From assembly GCA_900766735.1 (NCBI GenBank), contig CAAFWO010000052.1, positions 58,539 to 122,538 of the forward strand: a DNA stretch of 64,000 bases, in the 5' to 3' direction. The notes beneath the pieces were generated by a model. The model ran no database searches. It saw nothing but the letters and a program-made list of their open reading frames with translations, and was not told the origin of the DNA. Of the stretch, positions 703-31,358 are shown piece by piece (position 1 is the first letter of the stretch; every line of letters begins with the position of its first letter). The DNA is from Clostridia bacterium. GTDB taxonomy: Bacteria; Bacillota; Clostridia; CAKSNL01; HGM11501. Position numbers and translations under genes: made by a program.

Positions 703-2031
703 ATGGATATGACGAAAGGGCCGCTCGGAAAAGAGATCCTTTTTTTCAGCATTCCGCTCATTTTATCAAACCTTTTGCAGGTGTGCTTCAATATGTCCGA
801 CATTGCGGTGGTCGGAAAATTCGCAGGGTCGGAGGCACTGGGTGCAGTCGGGTCGACGACGATTCTGGTTACGCTTTTCACCGGCTTTCTGATCGGGATC
901 GGGAACGGAGTTAACGTGCTTGCGGCGCGCTTTATGGGGCTCGGCGATGAAAAGGGGTTAAAGGACTCTGTTAATACCTCGTTTGTCATCTGTCTTATAG
1001 CCGGCGTTTTGCTTTTGGCAGTCGGCATCCTGTTTTCCGGCACGCTTTTGGAGGTTTTGAAAACCAAAGAGGAGCTCATCGAGGGCGCGAAGCTCTATTT
1101 AAGAATATACTTTCTGGGCATGCCGGCTCTCGCTGTCTATAATTTCGGAAACGCCGTCTTATCCGCCGCAGGAGACACGAAGCGGCCGCTTTATTTCCTT
1201 GCCGCGGCCGGCGTTATCAACGTTTGCTTAAACCTTATTTTCGTTATCGTTTTTAAAAGAAGCGTGGACGGAGTCGCCGCGGCGAGCGTGATCTCGCAGT
1301 ATATCTCGGCGTTTTTGATAGTCAGATTCCTTTCAAAGCACGACTTTTCGTATTCTGTCGATTTTAAGGCGCTGTCCGTCAACAAAAAGCACGCCGCGTC
1401 GGTCTTAAAGCTCGGCGTTCCGTCCGGCTTTCAGAACGCTGTCTTTGCTATTGCGAACCTTTTCATTCAGGGAGCGGTGAACAGCTTTGACACGGTAGTG
1501 GTCGAGGGCAATGCCGCGGCCGCGAATGCCGACCCTTTGGTGTATGACGTTATGGCGGCGTTTTACATGGCGTGCGCAAGCTTTATGAGCATAAACTACG
1601 GCGCGGGCAACAAAAAGCGCGTGATAAAAAGCTATTACATTTCGCTGGCATATTCGGCCGGAATCGGCGCGGGGCTGGGAATTTTGCTCCTTCTTTTCGG
1701 AAAAGAATTTTTGGCTCTTTTCACAAACGAAGAGGCGGTTATAAACGAGGGGATAGTAAGGCTTCGGATAATGGCGTTTTCCTATGCCGTTTCGGCATTT
1801 ATGGACTGCACGATCGCAGCGTCGCGCGGGCTCGGGAAAACCATAGTGCCGACCGTGATGGTGATATTGGGCTCGTGCGTTTTCCGCGTCGCGTGGATAT
1901 ACACGGTGTTCGCGCATTTTCACACGGTCTTTTCGCTCTATTCGCTTTACATTTTCTCGTGGAGCATAACCGCGGCGGCGGAAATTATTTATTTCGTCTT
2001 TGCTTATAAAAAGGCGATGAGCGCATACTAA
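703..2031 (+). CDS. MATE family multidrug/oligosaccharidyl-lipid efflux transporter
   Basis: An AGGAGA RBS lies 7 nt upstream of the ATG at 703. The protein has ~12 predicted TM helices and typical MATE sequence (MDMTKGPLGKEILFFSIPLILSNLLQ...). Confidence 0.8.
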   Translation: MDMTKGPLGKEILFFSIPLILSNLLQVCFNMSDIAVVGKFAGSEALGAVGSTTILVTLFTGFLIGIGNGVNVLAARFMGLGDEKGLKDSVNTSFVICLIAGVLLLAVGILFSGTLLEVLKTKEELIEGAKLYLRIYFLGMPALAVYNFGNAVLSAAGDTKRPLYFLAAAGVINVCLNLIFVIVFKRSVDGVAAASVISQYISAFLIVRFLSKHDFSYSVDFKALSVNKKHAASVLKLGVPSGFQNAVFAIANLFIQGAVNSFDTVVVEGNAAAANADPLVYDVMAAFYMACASFMSINYGAGNKKRVIKSYYISLAYSAGIGAGLGILLLLFGKEFLALFTNEEAVINEGIVRLRIMAFSYAVSAFMDCTIAASRGLGKTIVPTVMVILGSCVFRVAWIYTVFAHFHTVFSLYSLYIFSWSITAAAEIIYFVFAYKKAMSAY

Positions 2032-2042
2032 GGAGAATACAA

Positions 2043-3032
2043 ATGGAAACGAAGATTTTGGATGTTGACGTTTTAAATATTGATGAGGAAAAGATCAATG
2101 AGGCGGCGAAGATGATAAGAGACGGCCGCCTTGTCGCGTTCCCGACGGAGACGGTCTACGGCCTCGGGGCAAATGCCGAAAACGAGGAGGCCGTGAAGAG
2201 CATTTTTTATGCCAAGGGAAGGCCGAGCGACAACCCTTTGATCGTTCACGTTTCCGACATCGCGATGTGCGAGAGGTATGTCAAAAAAATTCCGAAGGGC
2301 GCGGAGGCGCTGATGGCGCATTTTTGGGGCGGCCCTTTGACAATCATTATGGAAAAGAGCCCGCTTGCCTGCCAAAGCGTCAGCGCCGGGCTTGACACGG
2401 TCGGCATCAGGCTCCCGTCACACCCGGTGGCGCACGCGCTTATAAAGGCGGCGGACATCGGCATCGCCGCACCGAGCGCGAACATTTCGGGAAAGCCGAG
2501 CCCGACGCTTGCCGAGCACGTGATAGCGGACTTTTCGGGAAGAATCGATTGCATCATATCGTCCGGCGCGGCAAAGTACGGCGTCGAGTCCACCGTTATC
2601 GATATGAGCGAGGAGATACCCAAGGTTCTGCGCCCCGGCGCCGTGAGCCTTGATATGATAAGAGAGATTCTGCCGGACTCAGAGTACGGCGGAGGGGGTA
2701 AGGGCATTCCCAAAAGCCCGGGCATGAAATACAAGCACTATTCGCCGGACGCGAAGGTTTACGTCGTCCGCTCGGATATGAAAAAGACGGCGGAAAAGTT
2801 CCCGGACGGCACGGTCGTCATCGACTATAAAAAGGGCGACTACCCGGGAAAGATTTTTCTTTCTGCCGGCGAGAACGATTCGGACTATGCCGCGCGGCTT
2901 TTCTACCTTCTGCGCCTGGCGGACGAAAAGGGCGCGAAAACCGTTCTCGCGCGCGATCCAATAGGTGGAGCTCCGGTGACGGACGCGCTCATAAACAGGC
3001 TCTATAAATCTGCCGGGGGCGAGATAATATGA
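2043..3032 (+). CDS. tsaC: L-threonylcarbamoyladenylate synthase (Sua5/TsaC type, long form with Sua5 C-domain)
   Basis: YrdC/Sua5 signature VAFPTETVYGLGANA. The length is 329 aa, and it sits upstream of rimI and tsaD. Confidence 0.85.
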   Translation: METKILDVDVLNIDEEKINEAAKMIRDGRLVAFPTETVYGLGANAENEEAVKSIFYAKGRPSDNPLIVHVSDIAMCERYVKKIPKGAEALMAHFWGGPLTIIMEKSPLACQSVSAGLDTVGIRLPSHPVAHALIKAADIGIAAPSANISGKPSPTLAEHVIADFSGRIDCIISSGAAKYGVESTVIDMSEEIPKVLRPGAVSLDMIREILPDSEYGGGGKGIPKSPGMKYKHYSPDAKVYVVRSDMKKTAEKFPDGTVVIDYKKGDYPGKIFLSAGENDSDYAARLFYLLRLADEKGAKTVLARDPIGGAPVTDALINRLYKSAGGEII

Positions 3033-3451
3033 TCATTTTCGTGTGCACGGGAAACACCTGCCGAAGCCCGATGGCCGAGGGGTTTTATAAGGCGGCGACC
3101 GGGGAAGACGCGCAAAGCTTTGGCCTGATGTGCCCGGAAGGCGTTCCGGCGAGCAAAAACGCTGTTTCGGCGATGGAAAAGTTCGGGATCGACATAAAAG
3201 ACTGCACATCGCACCGCATAACGGCCGCGGCGGCCGCGGCGGCAGATGAGATTTTGTGCATGACCGAGGAGCAGAAGATAATGCTCACCTATGCATATCC
3301 CGAATATTCAGAAAAGATACGCCTGCTTTCGGAGGCGGCCGGGAAGAAAGGCAATGTGGCCGATCCGTTCGGCGGAGGCGAAAAGACTTATCTTGCCTCT
3401 GCGAAGGAAATAAAGGAGCTTGTCGATGGATATATTAAACTGCACGGCTGA
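3029..3451 (+). CDS. Low-molecular-weight protein-tyrosine-phosphatase (arsenate-reductase fold)
   Basis: N-terminal CTGNTCRSPMAEG P-loop. The ATGA overlap with tsaC suggests translational coupling. Confidence 0.85.
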   Translation: MIIFVCTGNTCRSPMAEGFYKAATGEDAQSFGLMCPEGVPASKNAVSAMEKFGIDIKDCTSHRITAAAAAAADEILCMTEEQKIMLTYAYPEYSEKIRLLSEAAGKKGNVADPFGGGEKTYLASAKEIKELVDGYIKLHG

Positions 3452-6660: not shown

Positions 6661-9600
6661 ATGACGTCAAGAAAAGCAACGGCGGTATTACTTGCTCTGC
6701 TTGTCACAGTGACAAGCTTTACGGCACTGCCCAAAGATGCAAAGGCGGCGGCGAGCACAAAATTCGAAGCGCTCGATTTTTCCTATGACCGCGACGACGT
6801 GTACACAAACTACATAAAGAAGTATGAGAATGCGGCTCATCCCGAGGTTGAGATTGCAGTTCCCGCGGCTTCTTTCGCGTCGGCGGCAAATCCGGAGACT
6901 GTGACCGGATATGCCGAGCTCGACGGGATGGAGAGTGTGCTCGAATTCGGAGAGGATGTTCAGTCCGTTACATATAATGTGAATATACCCCAGGAGGGTC
7001 TGTACAACATAAAGTACAGCATTAAGGGGCATGAAAATATCAAAAACGATATGGAGTTTGCTGTCAAGATAAACGGAGAATCGCCGTTTAACGAGGCAAT
7101 GACCATTCAGTCGCCCAGAGGATTCAAAAACTCGGACGAGGGATTTAAGGTCATCACCGACGAAGACAAAAACCGCACCGCGGAGTTTTCGCAGGACCGC
7201 GAAAACGATATGCGACCCAACCAGGAGAAGCTCTTAAAGTGGCGCACCGAATGGCTGGTCGATTCCGGCGGACTTATTGACGAACCCCTGTCGTTTTATT
7301 TTAATGCCGGTGAAAACACGATAACGTTTACGACTGTCGGCGAGCCTTTCTATATCGCCGGAATAACGCTTTGCCAGTATCACGCCCCCAAGGCATATGC
7401 GGAGGTTAAAAAAGAATATGACGCAAAGGGATATAAGCCTGCGACAAAGCAGTTCAAGGTTCAGGCCGAGACTGCGGACGAGTTTTCAGACTCCGCGCTT
7501 TATCCCATATCCGTGAGAAATAACGCTCAGATGGAGCCCCACCACACCAGCAAGACGAGAATCAACGCGGCCGGAGGTGCTAACTGGGGAAGCGCGAGAA
7601 GCTGGCTTCAGTGGACGATCGAGGCTCCGGAGTCCGGACTTTACGAAATGGCAATAAAGTTCCAGCAGAGCTCCTATGTCGGTATGAACGCGACAAGAAC
7701 GGTCTATGTTGACGGCGAGGTTCCTTATGAGGAGTTAAAGCACTTAAAGTTCGCATACGACTCCGGCTGGCAGGTTATGAAGACCGAGGATGAGTCCGGC
7801 GAGCCTTACTACATATATCTGTCCGAGGGTACGCATACTTTGAGAATGGAAGTTAACCTCGGCGAAATGTCCGCTATTATCGACAGACTGACGACGGTTA
7901 CATACCGCTTGAACAGCATATACAGCTCAGTTGTTATGCTTGCGTCTACGTCTCCCGATAAATACAGAGACTATTACTACGACAGAAGAATACCCAGCCT
8001 TATCGACGATCTTAAGTGGACAAGAGAAGAGATAAGCCAGATCAAGGAGTCCATCATCGAGGTTACCGGAACGTCGAGCTCGAAGACGGCGACGCTTGAA
8101 AGCTTTATCAATCAGCTTGACATTCTTATCGACGATCCGGATGAGTTCAGCAAGAGGCTTGAGGCGTTCAAGAACAACATCACCTCACTGAGTCAGTGGA
8201 TCATCGATAACAAGAGTCAGCCCGTTTCGCTTGACTACATCGTTTTCGGCCCGGCCGATATGAAGCTTGACAGAGCGGAAGCAGGATTCTTTAAGGGATT
8301 CTGGGAGGGTACGAAGACCTTCTTGGCATCGTTCGTCGAGGATTACAACGTAATCGGTGCGGTTGCCGGCGAGGGCAGAAAGGTCAAGGTATGGGTCAAC
8401 ACCGGCCGTGACCAGATCAACATCATCAACAACATGGTTAACGACGAGTTTACACCCGCAACCGGAATCAACGTTCAGCTTGAGCTCGTTCAGGGCTCGC
8501 TGATTGAGTCCACACTTGCCGGAAAGGGACCGGACGTTGCACTCATGATCGCGTCGGACCAGCCCGTAAACTATGCGATAAGAGGCGCGCTCGTAGATCT
8601 TTCACAGTTCGGGCCGCAGGATCTTGACGGAGACGGCAAGAACGAGGTCAACGGCTTTGCCGACGTTTATAAGAGATACAGCAGCCAGAACTTCGAGGGA
8701 TTTGCGTTCCAGATGAATTCCGACAAGGACAATGAAAAGGCTCACGAGGGCGAAGAGTGGACATGTGAGGCCTGCGGAACGGTGAACAACACCGGAATCT
8801 GCCCCACATGCGGATTTAAGAAATATTACGCATACTATGCCGTTCCCGAGACGCAGAATTTTAACATGATGTTCTACAGGAAGGACATTTTGGCAGAGCT
8901 CGGTCTCGGCGTTCCGAACACATGGGACGACTTTTATGCGATGCTTCCCGTGCTCAGAAGAAACAACCTTGAGGTCGGCGTTCCTTCGGGAACGATGTAT
9001 CAGATCCTCTTGTATCAGTACGGCGGAAGCTTCTATTCGGAGGATCGTCATAAGTCGGGACTCACGACGGACGCGGCAAAGGAAGCGTTTGTTGAGGTTT
9101 CGGATTGCTTCATTAAATATGACTTCCCGATAACCTTCAACTTCTACACGAGATTCAGAAGCGGCGAGATGCCGATCTCGATCCAGCCCTACACGCAGTA
9201 CAACCTGATCAATGCCGCGGCGCCCGAAATTCAGGGTCTGTGGGATATGACCAAGGTGCCCGGAACAAAGAGGGAGGACGGAAGCGTTGACTACGCGCAG
9301 AACGTTTCCTCCTCGGGCGCTATCATGTTTGAAAACACCAAGGACAAGGAAGCGGCGTGGGCATTTATCGAATGGTACACCAGAAACGATATGCAGACCC
9401 GTTACGGAACAGAGCTTGAGTCCATCATGGGCGCGGCCGGCCGTTATGCGGCGGCAAACACCGAGGCATTCCGCAACCTCGCGTGGACAAGACAGCAAAC
9501 GAGACTTTTGAGTGAGCAGATGGAAGACCTTGTCGGTGTTCCCGAAGTTCCCGGAAGCTATTTCATGGCAAGAACGATAACTCTTGCGTTCAACGACGCT

Positions 9601-27354: not shown

Positions 27355-28133
27355 AAAGAAAAAACGACTTATTTGAAGAGCTGAATCTCGGAAAGGAGCA
27401 GGGCTTCTGCGCCCCGTTTGAGATTGACACAGGCTCCGTTAAAAAAAGGGTGAGGGCAAAAATTGATTCCGCATGCACGGAAAGGAAGACTGTTACTATG
27501 AGATCGAAAAAGAAAATTGCACTTATCGCCGCTGCTGCGGCACTCACGCTCGGCATATCCGCGTTTGCGGCGAGCGGCGTTGTATCAAGCTGGTTCAGCT
27601 CGTCATCGTCTGTCCCCGATTACAAGTCGCTCCCGACTGCCGAGGAGGTTAAAAAGGACATCGGCTATGACGCGGTTGTTGTTGACGGATTCGAAAACGG
27701 CTATGTGTTTAAGAACGGAAGCGTTGTCGATAACTGCTTCGCGGACGAGGACGGAAACACGGTCGAGAGGTTTAAGTCGGTATCGTTCGACTATGAGAAG
27801 GAAGGCGATACTGTCACCTTCACCGAGGACTGCTTCAGCTCCGAAGTCGGTATAGCGGGCGAGGTCGTTAAGAGCTTAAACGGCACGGATATTTATTATC
27901 ACAGCTACAAAAACAAGTCCGTTCCCGGCGGATATGAGTTATCCGAGGAGGACAAAAAAGCGGAGGAGTCAGGCGAGCTTGTGTTCAGCTACGGTTCGCC
28001 TGAGGTGGAGATTCACGATATCAAAACCGTTACATGGGTGAAGGGCGGATTACATTTCCAGCTTTTGCAGATAGACGGCAGACTTTCGTCCGACGAGCTT
28101 GTTAAAATGGCAGAAGAGGTTATAGAAAGATAG
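27351..28133 (+). CDS. Putative membrane-anchored anti-sigma factor (single TM, extracytoplasmic C-domain)
   Basis: ATGA overlap with the sigma gene. A single TM helix (IALIAAAAALTLGISAFAA) sits ~55 aa from the N-terminus. Confidence 0.5.
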   Translation: MKRKNDLFEELNLGKEQGFCAPFEIDTGSVKKRVRAKIDSACTERKTVTMRSKKKIALIAAAAALTLGISAFAASGVVSSWFSSSSSVPDYKSLPTAEEVKKDIGYDAVVVDGFENGYVFKNGSVVDNCFADEDGNTVERFKSVSFDYEKEGDTVTFTEDCFSSEVGIAGEVVKSLNGTDIYYHSYKNKSVPGGYELSEEDKKAEESGELVFSYGSPEVEIHDIKTVTWVKGGLHFQLLQIDGRLSSDELVKMAEEVIER

Positions 28134-28136
28134 CAA

Positions 28137-28170
28137 AAACACGCATGCCGGAAGGTATGCGTGTTTTTTG
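28137..28170 (+). terminator. Rho-independent terminator (acacgcat-loop-atgcgtgt followed by a T-run)
   Basis: An 8-bp stem followed by TTTTTTG, directly after the anti-sigma stop. Confidence 0.65.
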
Positions 28171-28286
28171 CTGTCCGAAAAAGCTTAAACGGGTGCCGAG
28201 GCAATTTAAAGCCCTCCTTGCTAAAGGAGGGAAGAGCCGAAGGTGACGGGAGGATTTTTAGGAAGGGTCGCGGAAATATGACCAAA

Positions 28287-28320
28287 CCCCGGCGGTCGAT
28301 TCATGAATCGACCCTACGGT
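28287..28320. repeat. REP-like palindromic element, copy 1 (core GGTCGATTCATGAATCGACC with CCGG/CTACGG flanks)
   Basis: A perfect 20-nt palindrome. Near-identical copies occur at ~57737 (inverted orientation) and ~62807. Confidence 0.6.
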
Positions 28321-28505
28321 GCGTGCCTTTCGGCGCACATATTACCTTTGCACTGTTCACTATTCCTTAAACAGGCGGTCGGTGACCGCGTCTACGGGTG
28401 CGCGGGCGTAATGGGTGTGCATAAAAAACGGGAGGATGAGGGCATCCTCCCTTACGGGCGCCACAGCGCACTTTTTCCTTATTCACTATTGCATATACCC
28501 TCAAA

Positions 28506-28536
28506 CCGTAGGGGTCGATGCCCACATCGACCGGCA
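28506..28536. repeat. REP-like element, variant copy (CCGTAGG-GGTCGATG-ccca-CATCGACC-GGC)
   Basis: It has the same flanks as the other copies but a different stem-loop. Further half-copies lie at ~28383-28406 and ~28568-28590. Confidence 0.45.
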
Positions 28537-28645
28537 AATGTACACGCAGAGCAAACGGTCGAGAAAGTGAATCGACCCTACGGGTGCGCGGACAAAATAG
28601 GTTTATTGACATTCACCCGCATATATATGTATGCAGGTCTTTACT

Positions 28646-29008
28646 TTACCATTTTGTTTCGACACAGATGGCGTCTTCGGGGTCAAAATAGTCCGCAGTG
28701 CTACTCGAAAGGCCGGTGAAGGCGCGCCACGCGCGGTCAAAATCAATATCGCCGATGTTGGAGAGCACGGTAAACGTCGTGTCGCTTTCGGCATTGCCGA
28801 GCCGGCCGGCGATGAACAGGCGCTCTTTATAGGCCGTGCCGCCGGCCGTAAATGTTCCGTCGCTCATCTCGGAATATGCGACGCGGACGATGCTCTCGGC
28901 CGTTTCGTATTCGGATTCCGGGGTCGCCGGGAACTCTTTTTTCACGGTGACCTCATTTTGGCACCCGGCCAAAAGAAGCAAAGCTAAAATTAATGCAAGT
29001 TTTTTCAT
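28646..29008 (-). CDS. Small lipoprotein of unknown function
   Basis: Signal peptide with a lipobox (LLAGC). A GGGGAGG RBS lies upstream on the minus strand. Confidence 0.6.
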   Translation of the reverse strand: MKKLALILALLLLAGCQNEVTVKKEFPATPESEYETAESIVRVAYSEMSDGTFTAGGTAYKERLFIAGRLGNAESDTTFTVLSNIGDIDFDRAWRAFTGLSSSTADYFDPEDAICVETKW

Positions 29009-29026: not shown

Positions 29027-29078
29027 TTTTACTGATTTCTCGCGCTCGGAAAAAATCTTCGGGAACGACGAAAAGATG
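29027..29078. repeat. 52-bp direct repeat, left copy (remnant of the original MATE 3' end)
   Basis: It matches 29976-30027 with 1 mismatch. On the minus strand it reads in frame as ...IFSSFPKIFSEREKSVK. Confidence 0.7.
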
Positions 29079-29975
29079 TAAGAAAAATTATGGAAGTTCA
29101 GTATTGTGGTGAAATATTGGTTAATGTTATTTGTAACAAATAACGTCTCTCTCAACAGTATTTATAGTTTCTTGAGAGATTGTATTCGTGTTTAATAGAT
29201 ATACAATGTTTAATTTTGGATTGAAAATACCTAATTTGTCTATACTTTTAAATTCCTCTTTTCCTGAATGAATTCCCATTATCCAATACATTAATAATTG
29301 TAATGTTTGTTTAGATGTTATTTTAGACTCTTTAGAAACCTTGAAATCCCATAAAGTATCGTGCGTCAGATAGTCGCCGTCACCATCGGTAACAACATTT
29401 GTATAGCCATCGTTTTCGAATGTGAATCCGGTTATAGTGACAGGCCCGTATTGTGCCCAAAATTTTATACAACGGTTAAGCATGATGCGAATATTTTCTG
29501 TTGTAATTATATCAGGACACGCACGTGGAATATCGTACGTGGCGTCACTAAAAATCGCACTAAGCGGAGATCTGTACCATACATCATATGCGCATGCTTG
29601 ACAAGCAGCCATGATTGAAGCGTCATCAGTCCCTTTTATTTGCTCTAATAAGGATGATATATCAATTTTTCTTTTTTTTAGAGTCCGCTCAAGAGATTTA
29701 TAGTTCCTTATGCATTCTTGATATCCGTATTGAGAAATTTGAAATGCTGTTTCTATTGGAACACCAATCAAAAAACGGGTTAAGTAATCAATAGCACTAC
29801 CTATAATATTGGGGCTTATGTCTTCATTACTGTTAAGAGTAATGCCATCATCAAATTTGATTTTTTCAAAACTGGAAGGCCTGACATATCCTCCATAAGG
29901 TTGTTTGATAGATCTAATACGTCCTGTAACAGTTGACATTTGAAAACCTCCTTAATTAAAATAAATTTGACTTTG
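29079..29975 (-). mobile_element. ~0.9-kb AT-rich inserted cassette carrying a single orphan gene, bounded by the 52-bp direct repeats
   Basis: A sharp compositional drop (by eye ~1/3 GC against ~55% flanks). It has its own RBS (GGAGG). A 9-bp palindrome (GTTATTTGT.ACAAATAAC) sits at the gene's 3' end. No integrase lies inside it. Confidence 0.5.
29127..29939 (-). CDS. Orphan 270-aa protein of unknown function in the AT-rich cassette; it may contain a PD-(D/E)xK-like motif (VTDGDGD...WDFK)
   Basis: A long ORF with a good RBS and atypical codon usage. I do not recognise any family. Confidence 0.55.
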   Translation of the reverse strand: MSTVTGRIRSIKQPYGGYVRPSSFEKIKFDDGITLNSNEDISPNIIGSAIDYLTRFLIGVPIETAFQISQYGYQECIRNYKSLERTLKKRKIDISSLLEQIKGTDDASIMAACQACAYDVWYRSPLSAIFSDATYDIPRACPDIITTENIRIMLNRCIKFWAQYGPVTITGFTFENDGYTNVVTDGDGDYLTHDTLWDFKVSKESKITSKQTLQLLMYWIMGIHSGKEEFKSIDKLGIFNPKLNIVYLLNTNTISQETINTVERDVICYK

Positions 29976-31358
29976 TTTTACTGATTTCTCACGCTCGGAA
30001 AAAATCTTCGGGAACGACGAAAAGATGACGATTGCGGTGATAATGCCGGCGACGAAATCGGCTATTCCTTCGGACATATAAACGCCCTTATAGCCGAGAA
30101 AATGCGTTAAGATGAAGCAGAGCGGAATTAAGATGACGACCTTGCGCATAACGGCTAAAATGAGCGCTCGCTTCGCCTGCCCGAGCGCGATGTTGACGTT
30201 TTGAAGCGTCATCTGTACGAAGAACATTACCGAGCCCATTAAAAAGAGCGGCGCGTTGGATCTCACGATCTCGGTGACAGATGGGCTTGCCGAAAATAAA
30301 ATTGCATAGACCTGGGGTACGGCGAGCGAGAACGACCAAATTGTGACCGCGAAGATGAATGCTATTATGGTGACTATTTTGATTCCCTCTTTAAGCCTCT
30401 TTGAATTTCCGCGGCCGTAGTTGTAGCTCACGAAGGGCTGCATTCCCGTTCCGAGCCCGTTTAACGGAAGCGATATTAGCTGAAGCGCGCTTTGCATAAC
30501 GGTCATCGCGGCGGTATAGTCCTTGTTTCCGCCTGTCGCGCGGTTTAGGTTGACGTTGAAAACTATCTGTATCGCGCACTCGGTAATCGTCATCACAAAC
30601 GGGGTGAAGCCAAGTGAAAGAATTGAAAGAACGATTTTCCCTGACAAGCGCATTGCCTTGGGGCTGAAACGGAAAATGCTCCTTTTCAAACAGAAAAACA
30701 AAAGCACCGCGACGCATGAAAAAAACTGAGAGATTATTGTCGCGAGCGCCGAACCGCTGACGCCCATTTTGAGAGTAAAAATAAATACCGGGTCAAGCGC
30801 TATGTTTAATACGGCGCCCAAAAGGACGGAGCACATCGCATAAAACGAATACCCCTGAGTTAATATAAACGGGTTTAACCCCTGCGCGAGCATGACAAAA
30901 AGCGTGCCGGCAGAGTAAATTCTTAAATATGACACGGCGAATGAGACTGCGCTTTCGGGACACCCGAAAAGCCTCACGATCGGCTCGGCAAGGGCGAACG
31001 CCAAAGCGCTTGTTAAAATGCCTATAATAATGAGGAGCAGAAACGAATTGCTAAAAATCGTGTTCGCCGTCTCATTTTTTCCTTCGCCTAATTTGATTCC
31101 GGCGCGCGGCGAGCCGCCGAGGCCGATCAGGTTTGAAAAGGCGGAGATGATGAGCGTGACGGGAAGAACTATCCCGAGCGCGGCCAGCGCGTCCATCCCG
31201 GAGGGTTCGATCCTCGCGACATACATTCTGTCCACTATATTATATAAAAATGTGATTAGCTGTGCGATTACTGCCGGCACGGTCAGATGAAAGACGAGAG
31301 GAAGAATCTTTCCCGCTTCAAGCTCGGCCGTGACGGGCATATTTTTTCTTTTTAACAT
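29952..31358 (-). CDS. MATE family efflux transporter
   Basis: 12 TM helices and MATE-type sequence. Its 3' end lies inside the right repeat copy. Confidence 0.8.
   Translation of the reverse strand: MLKRKNMPVTAELEAGKILPLVFHLTVPAVIAQLITFLYNIVDRMYVARIEPSGMDALAALGIVLPVTLIISAFSNLIGLGGSPRAGIKLGEGKNETANTIFSNSFLLLIIIGILTSALAFALAEPIVRLFGCPESAVSFAVSYLRIYSAGTLFVMLAQGLNPFILTQGYSFYAMCSVLLGAVLNIALDPVFIFTLKMGVSGSALATIISQFFSCVAVLLFFCLKRSIFRFSPKAMRLSGKIVLSILSLGFTPFVMTITECAIQIVFNVNLNRATGGNKDYTAAMTVMQSALQLISLPLNGLGTGMQPFVSYNYGRGNSKRLKEGIKIVTIIAFIFAVTIWSFSLAVPQVYAILFSASPSVTEIVRSNAPLFLMGSVMFFVQMTLQNVNIALGQAKRALILAVMRKVVILIPLCFILTHFLGYKGVYMSEGIADFVAGIITAIVIFSSFPKIFSEREKSVKQSQIYFN
29976..30027. repeat. 52-bp direct repeat, right copy (current 3' end of the MATE gene)
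   Basis: It matches 29027-29078 with 1 mismatch, and it encodes the present MATE C-terminus. Confidence 0.7.

Follow-up and report, generated by a model that had tools for sequence, protein, structure and literature searches.

A candidate single-gene defence nuclease of family PDC-S61 inserted at the 3′ end of a MatE transporter gene in a Clostridia bacterium

The Locus and the Insertion

The gene described here lies in a 64,000-nucleotide stretch of contig CAAFWO010000052.1 (positions 58,539 to 122,538; assembly GCA_900766735.1) from a Clostridia bacterium; this whole stretch is called the window. Between a MatE-family transporter gene and a gene with a lipoprotein-like signal peptide, there is an open reading frame (ORF) of 270 amino acids with a GGAGG ribosome-binding site (RBS). 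We call the gene and its product S61, after the candidate family PDC-S61. The ORF, its RBS, and its location were found just as they had been described in the first-pass annotation, which was made from the DNA letters without database searches. The foreign, AT-rich composition noted there was also borne out, the GC content being 0.343 in the S61 gene versus 0.485 in MatE and 0.543 in the lipoprotein-like gene. The features of the locus are listed in Table 1.

Table 1: Features of the S61 locus, in window positions.
Feature	Position	Strand	Remarks
S61 ORF	29127–29939	minus	270 aa, ATG start; PADLOC PDC-S61 member, predicted RecB/Cas4-class PD-(D/E)xK nuclease
GGAGG RBS	29947–29951	minus	7 nt 5′ of S61 ATG; abuts MatE stop codon (29952–29954); read from sequence
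N-terminal motif T5-x-R7-I8...Q13-P14-x-G16-G17-Y18, codons	29886–29927	minus	Conserved; opens the module in all fusions too
D51-Y-L-T-R55, codons	29775–29789	minus	Helix 43–57, candidate motif I; D51, Y52, T54, R55 invariant in A1; putative role
Nuclease motifs II–IV, codons	29286–29381	minus	D187/D189 (beta2), D198-F-K200 (beta3), Q214-x-x-x-Y218 (next helix)
AT-rich unique insert	29079–29975	minus	897 bp; missing from empty-site alleles
52-nt direct repeat, upstream copy	29976–30027		3′ end of MatE coding sequence; T at the single variable position
52-nt direct repeat, downstream copy	29027–29078		Relic MatE 3′ end before RBS of lipoprotein-like gene; C at the variable position
Inverted repeat, 9-nt arms and 1 central base	29126–29144		GTTATTTGT-A-ACAAATAAC; overlaps S61 stop codon
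MatE-family transporter gene	29952–31358	minus	PF01554 annotation; last codons changed by insertion
120-aa gene with lipoprotein-like signal peptide	28646–29008	minus	Separated from MatE by the cassette in the window

The limits of the insertion were drawn by comparison with near-identical strains. Independent human-gut assemblies yielded 13 contigs with an identical S61 protein, at the same site every time (L001–L012 are occupied contigs), and five contigs with flanks 96–99% identical to the window (L013, L014, L015, L103, and L104) were empty. The window carries two copies of a 52-nt direct repeat that bracket S61 and are identical at 51 of 52 positions. As the empty contigs have a single repeat copy and no insert, the insertion corresponds to 897 bp of unique sequence plus the duplicated 52 nt. 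The unique part consists of 24 nt that encode a new MatE C-terminus, the RBS, the S61 gene, and a 48-nt 3′ tail; S61 is its sole ORF, and neither an element-encoded recombinase nor terminal inverted repeats were found in it. With the insert the MatE protein ends in ...KQSQIYFN* (QSQIYFN* coming from the insert) and without it in ...KAQGGQS*. In the empty alleles the MatE stop overlaps the start of the lipoprotein-like gene (ATGA, e.g., L013:981–984), which implies translational coupling of the two genes, and the insertion uncouples the lipoprotein-like gene from MatE in the window. The unoccupied sites, in strains 97–99% identical, show that S61 was acquired horizontally as a single-gene insertion, as had been proposed.

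The variable position of the repeat is T in L103 and L104 and C in L013–L015. Every empty allele carries flanking single-nucleotide polymorphisms (SNPs) missing from the occupied allele, with the differences concentrated in the 70 nt or so next to the junction; the empty alleles therefore form a separate haplotype, and recent excision was ruled out as their origin. The 52-nt repeat could be the footprint of site-specific or illegitimate recombination, or else the scar of recombination between an occupied and an empty allele. A search for a donor element in JGI metagenomes gave no match to the 3′ tail in any other context.

No minus-strand terminator was detected between the MatE, S61, and lipoprotein-like genes, nor a promoter-like site before S61. 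The gene is therefore probably cotranscribed with MatE, and its expression appears to be constitutive, by read-through from MatE. The 9-bp perfect palindrome that had been reported at the S61 stop codon exists as an inverted repeat overlapping the stop, with a single central base between arms of 9 nt. We discarded it as a functional element because it lies within the codons of the conserved C-terminal VICYK*, is AT-rich, and is lost in an 87%-identical orthologue (L096), and it is probably incidental. The comparison of S61 with this orthologue gave identities of 94, 92, and 81% at codon positions 1, 2, and 3, a pattern which points to purifying selection on S61. An Rfam scan in and around the cassette yielded no credible RNA-element match, and our search for public names of the exact protein found none.

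Family, Fold, and Catalytic Residues

A search of PADLOC-DB, which had been suggested as a check, aligned the S61 protein over its full length with PDC-S61, a candidate family of the single-gene type (E 8.9e-95, 315 bits, residues 1–270 against profile positions 1–251 of 253). By its sequence S61 is assigned to this catalogued candidate family, from which nothing in that sequence sets it apart. The second match was to the DRT-associated PD-(D/E)xK protein RTasPDDEXK (residues 156–257, E 6.5e-10). The PDC families are 145 phage defence candidates nominated by "guilt-by-embedding" (Payne et al., bioRxiv 10.1101/2024.01.29.577857), that is, by members embedded in BREX, DISARM, or type I restriction-modification (RM) operons. 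A PDC-S61 copy is listed, not assayed, in the CR3 defence island of Streptococcus thermophilus ST55 (PMC11514479).

The protein had been called an orphan, a description that does not hold: clustering at 90% identity left 2,076 groups of homologues, and at 50% identity there were 1,506 homologous representatives, of which 670 had E ≤ 1e-30. Pfam and NCBIfam returned zero matches even at E ≤ 10, Cas_Cas4 and PDDEXK_1 included; PHROGs returned one weak, partial match to a family of unknown function, and the S61 family profile found nothing meaningful among the PDB sequences (best E 0.2). A match to a metabolic or structural family, or a confinement of the homologues to conserved housekeeping contexts, was also looked for, and neither was seen.

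An AlphaFold2 model of the S61 protein was built on 23 homologues and is confident, with a predicted local distance difference test score (pLDDT) of 87.4 and a predicted template modelling score of 0.86. The N-terminal half is helical, and the C-terminal half forms an alpha-beta-beta-beta-alpha-beta core. When the model was compared by Foldseek with the PDB, the matches pointed to Dna2 (probability 0.82–0.89) and Cas4, all of them marginal; among viral structures they were helicase-nuclease fusions and phage RecB-like exonucleases. The top structural matches are repair and recombination nucleases, and the core is RecB/MGME1-like.

The residues of the putative active site were followed in an alignment of close relatives (A1) and in another of 48 diverse fusion proteins (A4). 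D51, D187, K200, Q214, and Y218 are invariant in A1, and D189 and D198 nearly invariant; in A4 the same seven positions are invariant or nearly so, with Q214 invariant and Y218 nearly. The peptide VVTDGDGDYLTHDTLWDFKVSK corresponds to residues 182–203. The possible PD-(D/E)xK constellation of the first-pass annotation is borne out by the agreement of conserved residues and fold model; more precisely, the protein falls in the RecB/Cas4/MGME1 branch but has no iron-sulphur (Fe-S) cluster like that of Cas4, AddB, and Dna2. An extra acidic residue, as in RecB-type sites, could come from the D51-Y-L-T-R55 helix. The claim of several conserved cysteines was not sustained: of the six in the protein only C113 and C268 are invariant among the close relatives, and in the wider family both are replaced (Ala, Gly). 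The four cysteines of a Cas4/AddB/Dna2-type Fe-S cluster are not conserved in A1 or A4. No recognisable sensor domain was found either, the entire 270 residues forming one conserved module. Taken together, conservation and model place S61 in the RecB/Cas4/MGME1 branch of the PD-(D/E)xK superfamily as a predicted nuclease; it belongs by fold to the RecB/Cas4 branch but matches no curated family of it.

Distribution, Neighbourhoods, and Fusions

Among 185,579 species genomes there were 294 matches to the family, mostly in gut and rumen Clostridia, Erysipelotrichaceae, and Bacilli. Neighbourhoods and GC content were counted over 80 homologous loci. At 50 of them S61 has a GC content lower than its flanks by 0.05 or more. 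The upstream neighbour is co-oriented at 55 of 77 loci and lies within 50 nt in 25 of these 55, so that S61 is often tucked behind another gene, as in the window. There is no conserved partner, the biggest neighbour family being common to 5 of the 80 loci. HsdM (5 loci), large serine recombinases (5), tyrosine integrases (4), and helix-turn-helix (HTH) regulators recur, a few loci also have HsdS, type IIG enzymes, ResIII, or other PDC candidates, and the remaining neighbours are housekeeping genes. The window locus has no cognate DNA methyltransferase, and methyltransferases occur at a minority of the homologous loci; an adjacent antitoxin-like gene is not recurrent (a 118-aa upstream ORF is present at only 4 loci). 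Neither an annealase (RecT, Red-beta, or ERF type) nor a helicase partner was detected at the 80 loci, and no reverse transcriptase was detected near the gene there or in the window. A system completed by a partner gene, antitoxin, or methylase was rejected, as none is conserved over these loci.

Plasmids with a member of the family number 46 (Bacillus, Lactococcus, Lactobacillus, Streptococcus, and Bifidobacterium), and on each the gene stands alone, annotated "hypothetical protein"; the family was seen in one of 50,697 phage records and on one IMG/VR contig. An origin as a phage gene, or as a phage recombination exonuclease, was discarded, since the family is almost missing from phages. On the IMG/VR contig (L102) a large serine recombinase gene (1906–3447) was seen 4.5 kb upstream of the homologue (8001–8780), and an M78-peptidase-like gene directly downstream; this contig may represent an integrated element and not a virion genome.

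In some relatives the S61 module is part of a larger protein. Four representatives (P0190, P0207, P0232, and P0267; about 1,070–1,240 aa) have an SNF2-related helicase and Helicase_C with S61 at the C-terminus, and in another arrangement a T5orf172 domain is followed by a region that is helicase-like by eye and then by S61. One distant relative (P0181) joins S61 to NUMOD1/I-HmuI-like modules; fusions to HTH_17 or HTH_3 and a tandem S61-S61 (P0191) were also found. The S61 protein of the window has no NUMOD or HTH module. These architectures fit a DNA-directed nuclease effector which can also be powered by a translocase or guided by a DNA-binding module, and the SNF2 fusions suggest that larger translocase-nuclease systems use the module as their effector as well.

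Sister Lineage, Locus L061, and Mobility

In a sister lineage (L096–L098), with flanks 81–87% identical to those of the window, an S61 orthologue occupies the same upstream junction. Behind it, in L096 (8001–9447), L097, and L098, come 127 nt and then a gene for a GNAT acetyltransferase whose GC content is native-like; a direct repeat is absent. The junction between the MatE and lipoprotein-like genes is consequently known in three alleles: empty, with S61 and the repeat, and with S61 and GNAT. Nucleotide identity between the window and the sister lineage is 89% for S61, 81% for MatE, and 87% for the lipoprotein-like gene. S61 has diverged to about the same extent as its flanks, and it was therefore either at the site before the two lineages split or moved along with its flanks.

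At locus L061, from another species, a 26-nt direct repeat (25 of 26 identical; L061:552–577 and L061:1610–1635) has one copy over the final 8 codons of the co-oriented gene upstream and the other directly after an AT-rich S61 gene. This independent locus has the same architecture as the window, and the non-coding ends of the two cassettes have no visible similarity. Flanking repeats of at least 20 nt are present at only 2–3 of 80 other loci; the one at L083 is a duplicated terminator, and that at L076 is probably due to chance. This rarity of long repeats, together with the dissimilar ends and the lack of inverted termini, led us to reject a transposon-like cassette.

The two loci allow the idea that PDC-S61 travels as a minimal promoter-less single-gene cassette which inserts right behind the coding sequence of a host gene in the same orientation. 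The target would be duplicated by tens of nucleotides (52 nt in the window, 26 nt at L061), and the insertion would be the work of a recombinase supplied in trans or of the RecB/Cas4-like nuclease; NUMOD modules of the homing-endonuclease type occur in some relatives. If true, this would be a new kind of minimal mobile defence cassette; we regard it as a long shot.

A selfish or mobility nuclease, homing-endonuclease-like or left over from an integrative element, would spread or retain its own cassette with no role in host defence. Presence or absence at a fixed site with a repeat of the target 3′ end would be expected from it, as would the recurrence of this arrangement at L061, the relative fused to modules typical of homing endonucleases, and the recombinases near 9 of the 80 homologues. 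It is harder to reconcile with the scarcity of flanking repeats at the other loci, with cassettes that lack terminal inverted repeats and common ends, and with a 3′ tail found in no other context. Moreover, in the two lineages S61 has stayed at one site and diverged along with its flanks instead of spreading, and the empty alleles, on their different SNP haplotype, give no sign of recent excision. We consider this explanation improbable.

Proposed Role

The analysis establishes the gene, its membership in the family, the fold, the conserved catalytic residues, the lack of a partner, the insertion polymorphism, and how the family is distributed. We infer for S61 a nuclease activity, a preference for DNA ends or single-stranded DNA, and a defence phenotype. 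The defence reading draws on the match to PDC-S61 and the way in which PDC families were nominated, the copy in the CR3 island, the enrichment of homologues near RM systems and mobile-element genes, their presence on plasmids and near exclusion from phages, the fusions, and the strain-variable, AT-rich occurrence of the gene. The protein would be a stand-alone Mg2+-dependent DNA nuclease whose gene came to the MatE 3′ end as a lone, AT-rich insert with no promoter of its own and is probably transcribed with MatE; its most likely role would be innate protection of the cell from foreign DNA entering as phage or plasmid. By engaging free DNA ends or single-stranded DNA, the enzyme would nick or degrade linear injected or replicating DNA, and the circular, end-free chromosome would be spared. 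A defence nuclease is, in our estimate, somewhat better than an even bet. The end- or single-strand-dependent mode of attack, favoured because the closest structural relatives act on ends, flaps, or single strands and because end sensing is known in Shedu, is given about half of that likelihood. The first-pass proposal of a horizontally acquired one-gene defence module is supported by the PADLOC match and the unoccupied sites, with the reservation that the window copy does not lie in a defence island.

Several observations weigh against a defence nuclease. PDC-S61 is named in the literature by one paper only, without an assay, and the family is a bioinformatic candidate; its role in defence is for that reason deduced rather than established. 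Its homologues had been expected in defence islands, and RM genes or recombinases do accompany some of them, but most loci are not recognisable defence islands. The window copy has housekeeping neighbours and is not embedded in BREX, DISARM, or type I RM; its wider surroundings comprise the str operon, a sigma/anti-sigma pair, and hydrogenase genes. The codivergence of S61 with its flanks means that it did not arrive recently and coexists stably with its host. In the model, pLDDT is low (about 55) at residues 170–190, which adjoin motif II. Finally, how a constitutive nuclease would spare the replication and repair intermediates of the host lacks an explanation.

One alternative is an abortive-infection toxin. 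In that case the nuclease would be held inactive by low expression, autoinhibition, or its oligomeric state until a phage cue activates it, host and phage nucleic acid would be degraded indiscriminately, and the infected cell would die. A single gene with no methylase or other self-marking partner is consistent with such a toxin, many PD-(D/E)xK defence effectors are regulated in this way (PMC12904381; bioRxiv 10.1101/2023.08.10.552793), and the weaker PADLOC match is to an effector-type protein of defence reverse transcriptases. On the other hand, the 270 residues are a single module with the same bounds in the fusions, leaving no recognisable sensor domain, there is no antitoxin-like neighbour, and read-through from MatE would make expression constitutive. 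We think this alternative rather unlikely.

The structural matches, being to repair and recombination nucleases, would also suit an accessory exonuclease comparable to RecE, lambda Exo, YqaJ, or MGME1, whose task would be to process ends or flaps on behalf of the host or a plasmid, with no part in immunity. The plasmid copies, which lie among maintenance genes, and the stable, housekeeping-like chromosomal position of the window copy go in the same direction. Against such an exonuclease stand the lack of an annealase or helicase partner at the 80 loci, the near absence of the family from phages, where exonucleases of this kind abound, the patchy, strain-variable distribution with foreign GC content, and the family members embedded in or adjoining RM systems. 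Its probability seems low to us.

If a defence role were confirmed, a compact (about 260 aa), partner-less RecB/Cas4-like nuclease would join the validated anti-phage systems. Firmicutes of the gut and rumen carry its family widely, as do plasmids from bacteria of dairy products and food (Lactococcus, Lactobacillus, Streptococcus, and Bacillus). The proposal offers residues for mutation (D187/D189, D198, K200, Q214, Y218, and D51) and a substrate prediction, namely DNA ends or single-stranded DNA and not closed circles, and natural isogenic-like strains with and without S61 are available for comparison. Conceptually it would be unsurprising, single-gene PD-(D/E)xK defence nucleases being already a well-populated class.

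Intergenic Stretch beyond the Lipoprotein-Like Gene

The stretch between the lipoprotein-like gene and a convergent 260-aa gene (28181–28590) is intergenic and varies among strains: about 355 bp (28181–28535) are missing in L013 and about 232 bp (28324–28555) in L103/L104. It contains a perfect 20-nt palindrome (GGTCGATTCATGAATCGACC, 28294–28313) and repeated 16-mers (TGAATCGACCCTACGG) at 28304 and 28568, and it gave no match in Rfam. Directly after the 260-aa gene, which ends at 28133, there is a near-perfect 15-bp hairpin (AAAAACACGCATGCC/GGTATGCGTGTTTTT, 28135–28168), probably a bidirectional terminator.

Comparison with Known Systems

With the catalogued PDC-S61 family the gene shares the same single-gene architecture of about 250–270 aa. 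Its comparators in the RecB/Cas4 class are MGME1, the nuclease domains of AdnAB/AddAB, Dna2, Cas4, the Argonaute-associated ACE1, RecE, and lambda Exo. S61 differs from them in having no match at the sequence level in Pfam, NCBIfam, or the PDB, no helicase, Cas1, or Argonaute partner in cis, and a distinctive N-terminal TxRI...QPxGGY motif. Cas4, AddB, and Dna2 have a four-cysteine Fe-S cluster, which S61 lacks, and in comparison with Cas4 proper S61 also lacks a CRISPR context.

Integrative elements and their integrase-less derivatives, such as the CIMEs (cis-mobilizable elements) related to ICESt1/ICESt3 of S. thermophilus, reside in gene 3′ ends between direct repeats. The S61 insert resembles them in its position at a gene 3′ end, in the 52-nt direct repeat, and in the gene end that the insert rebuilds. 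It differs in having no recombinase, a length of only 897 bp, and no sign of excision, and in the sister lineage without a repeat.

Two further classes were compared and rejected: a type II restriction enzyme, as no methylase is adjacent at the window locus, and the toxin of a toxin-antitoxin pair, as no partner is conserved. RTasPDDEXK of the DRT systems is homologous to the catalytic half of S61, with partial coverage only.

Shedu (SduA, DUF4263) is a single-protein PD-(D/E)xK defence nuclease that tells phage from host by DNA-end sensing (PMC12904381; bioRxiv 10.1101/2023.08.10.552793). The S61 protein has no match to the DUF4263 (Pfam) or Shedu (PADLOC) hidden Markov models and no separate N-terminal sensor domain, and its core is RecB/MGME1-like, whereas that of Shedu is EndoMS/NucS-like (bioRxiv 10.1101/2023.08.10.552793). 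Like Shedu, S61 would be a one-gene defence nuclease of the same superfamily, and the end sensing of Shedu is the best precedent for a discrimination between self and non-self that needs no methylase.

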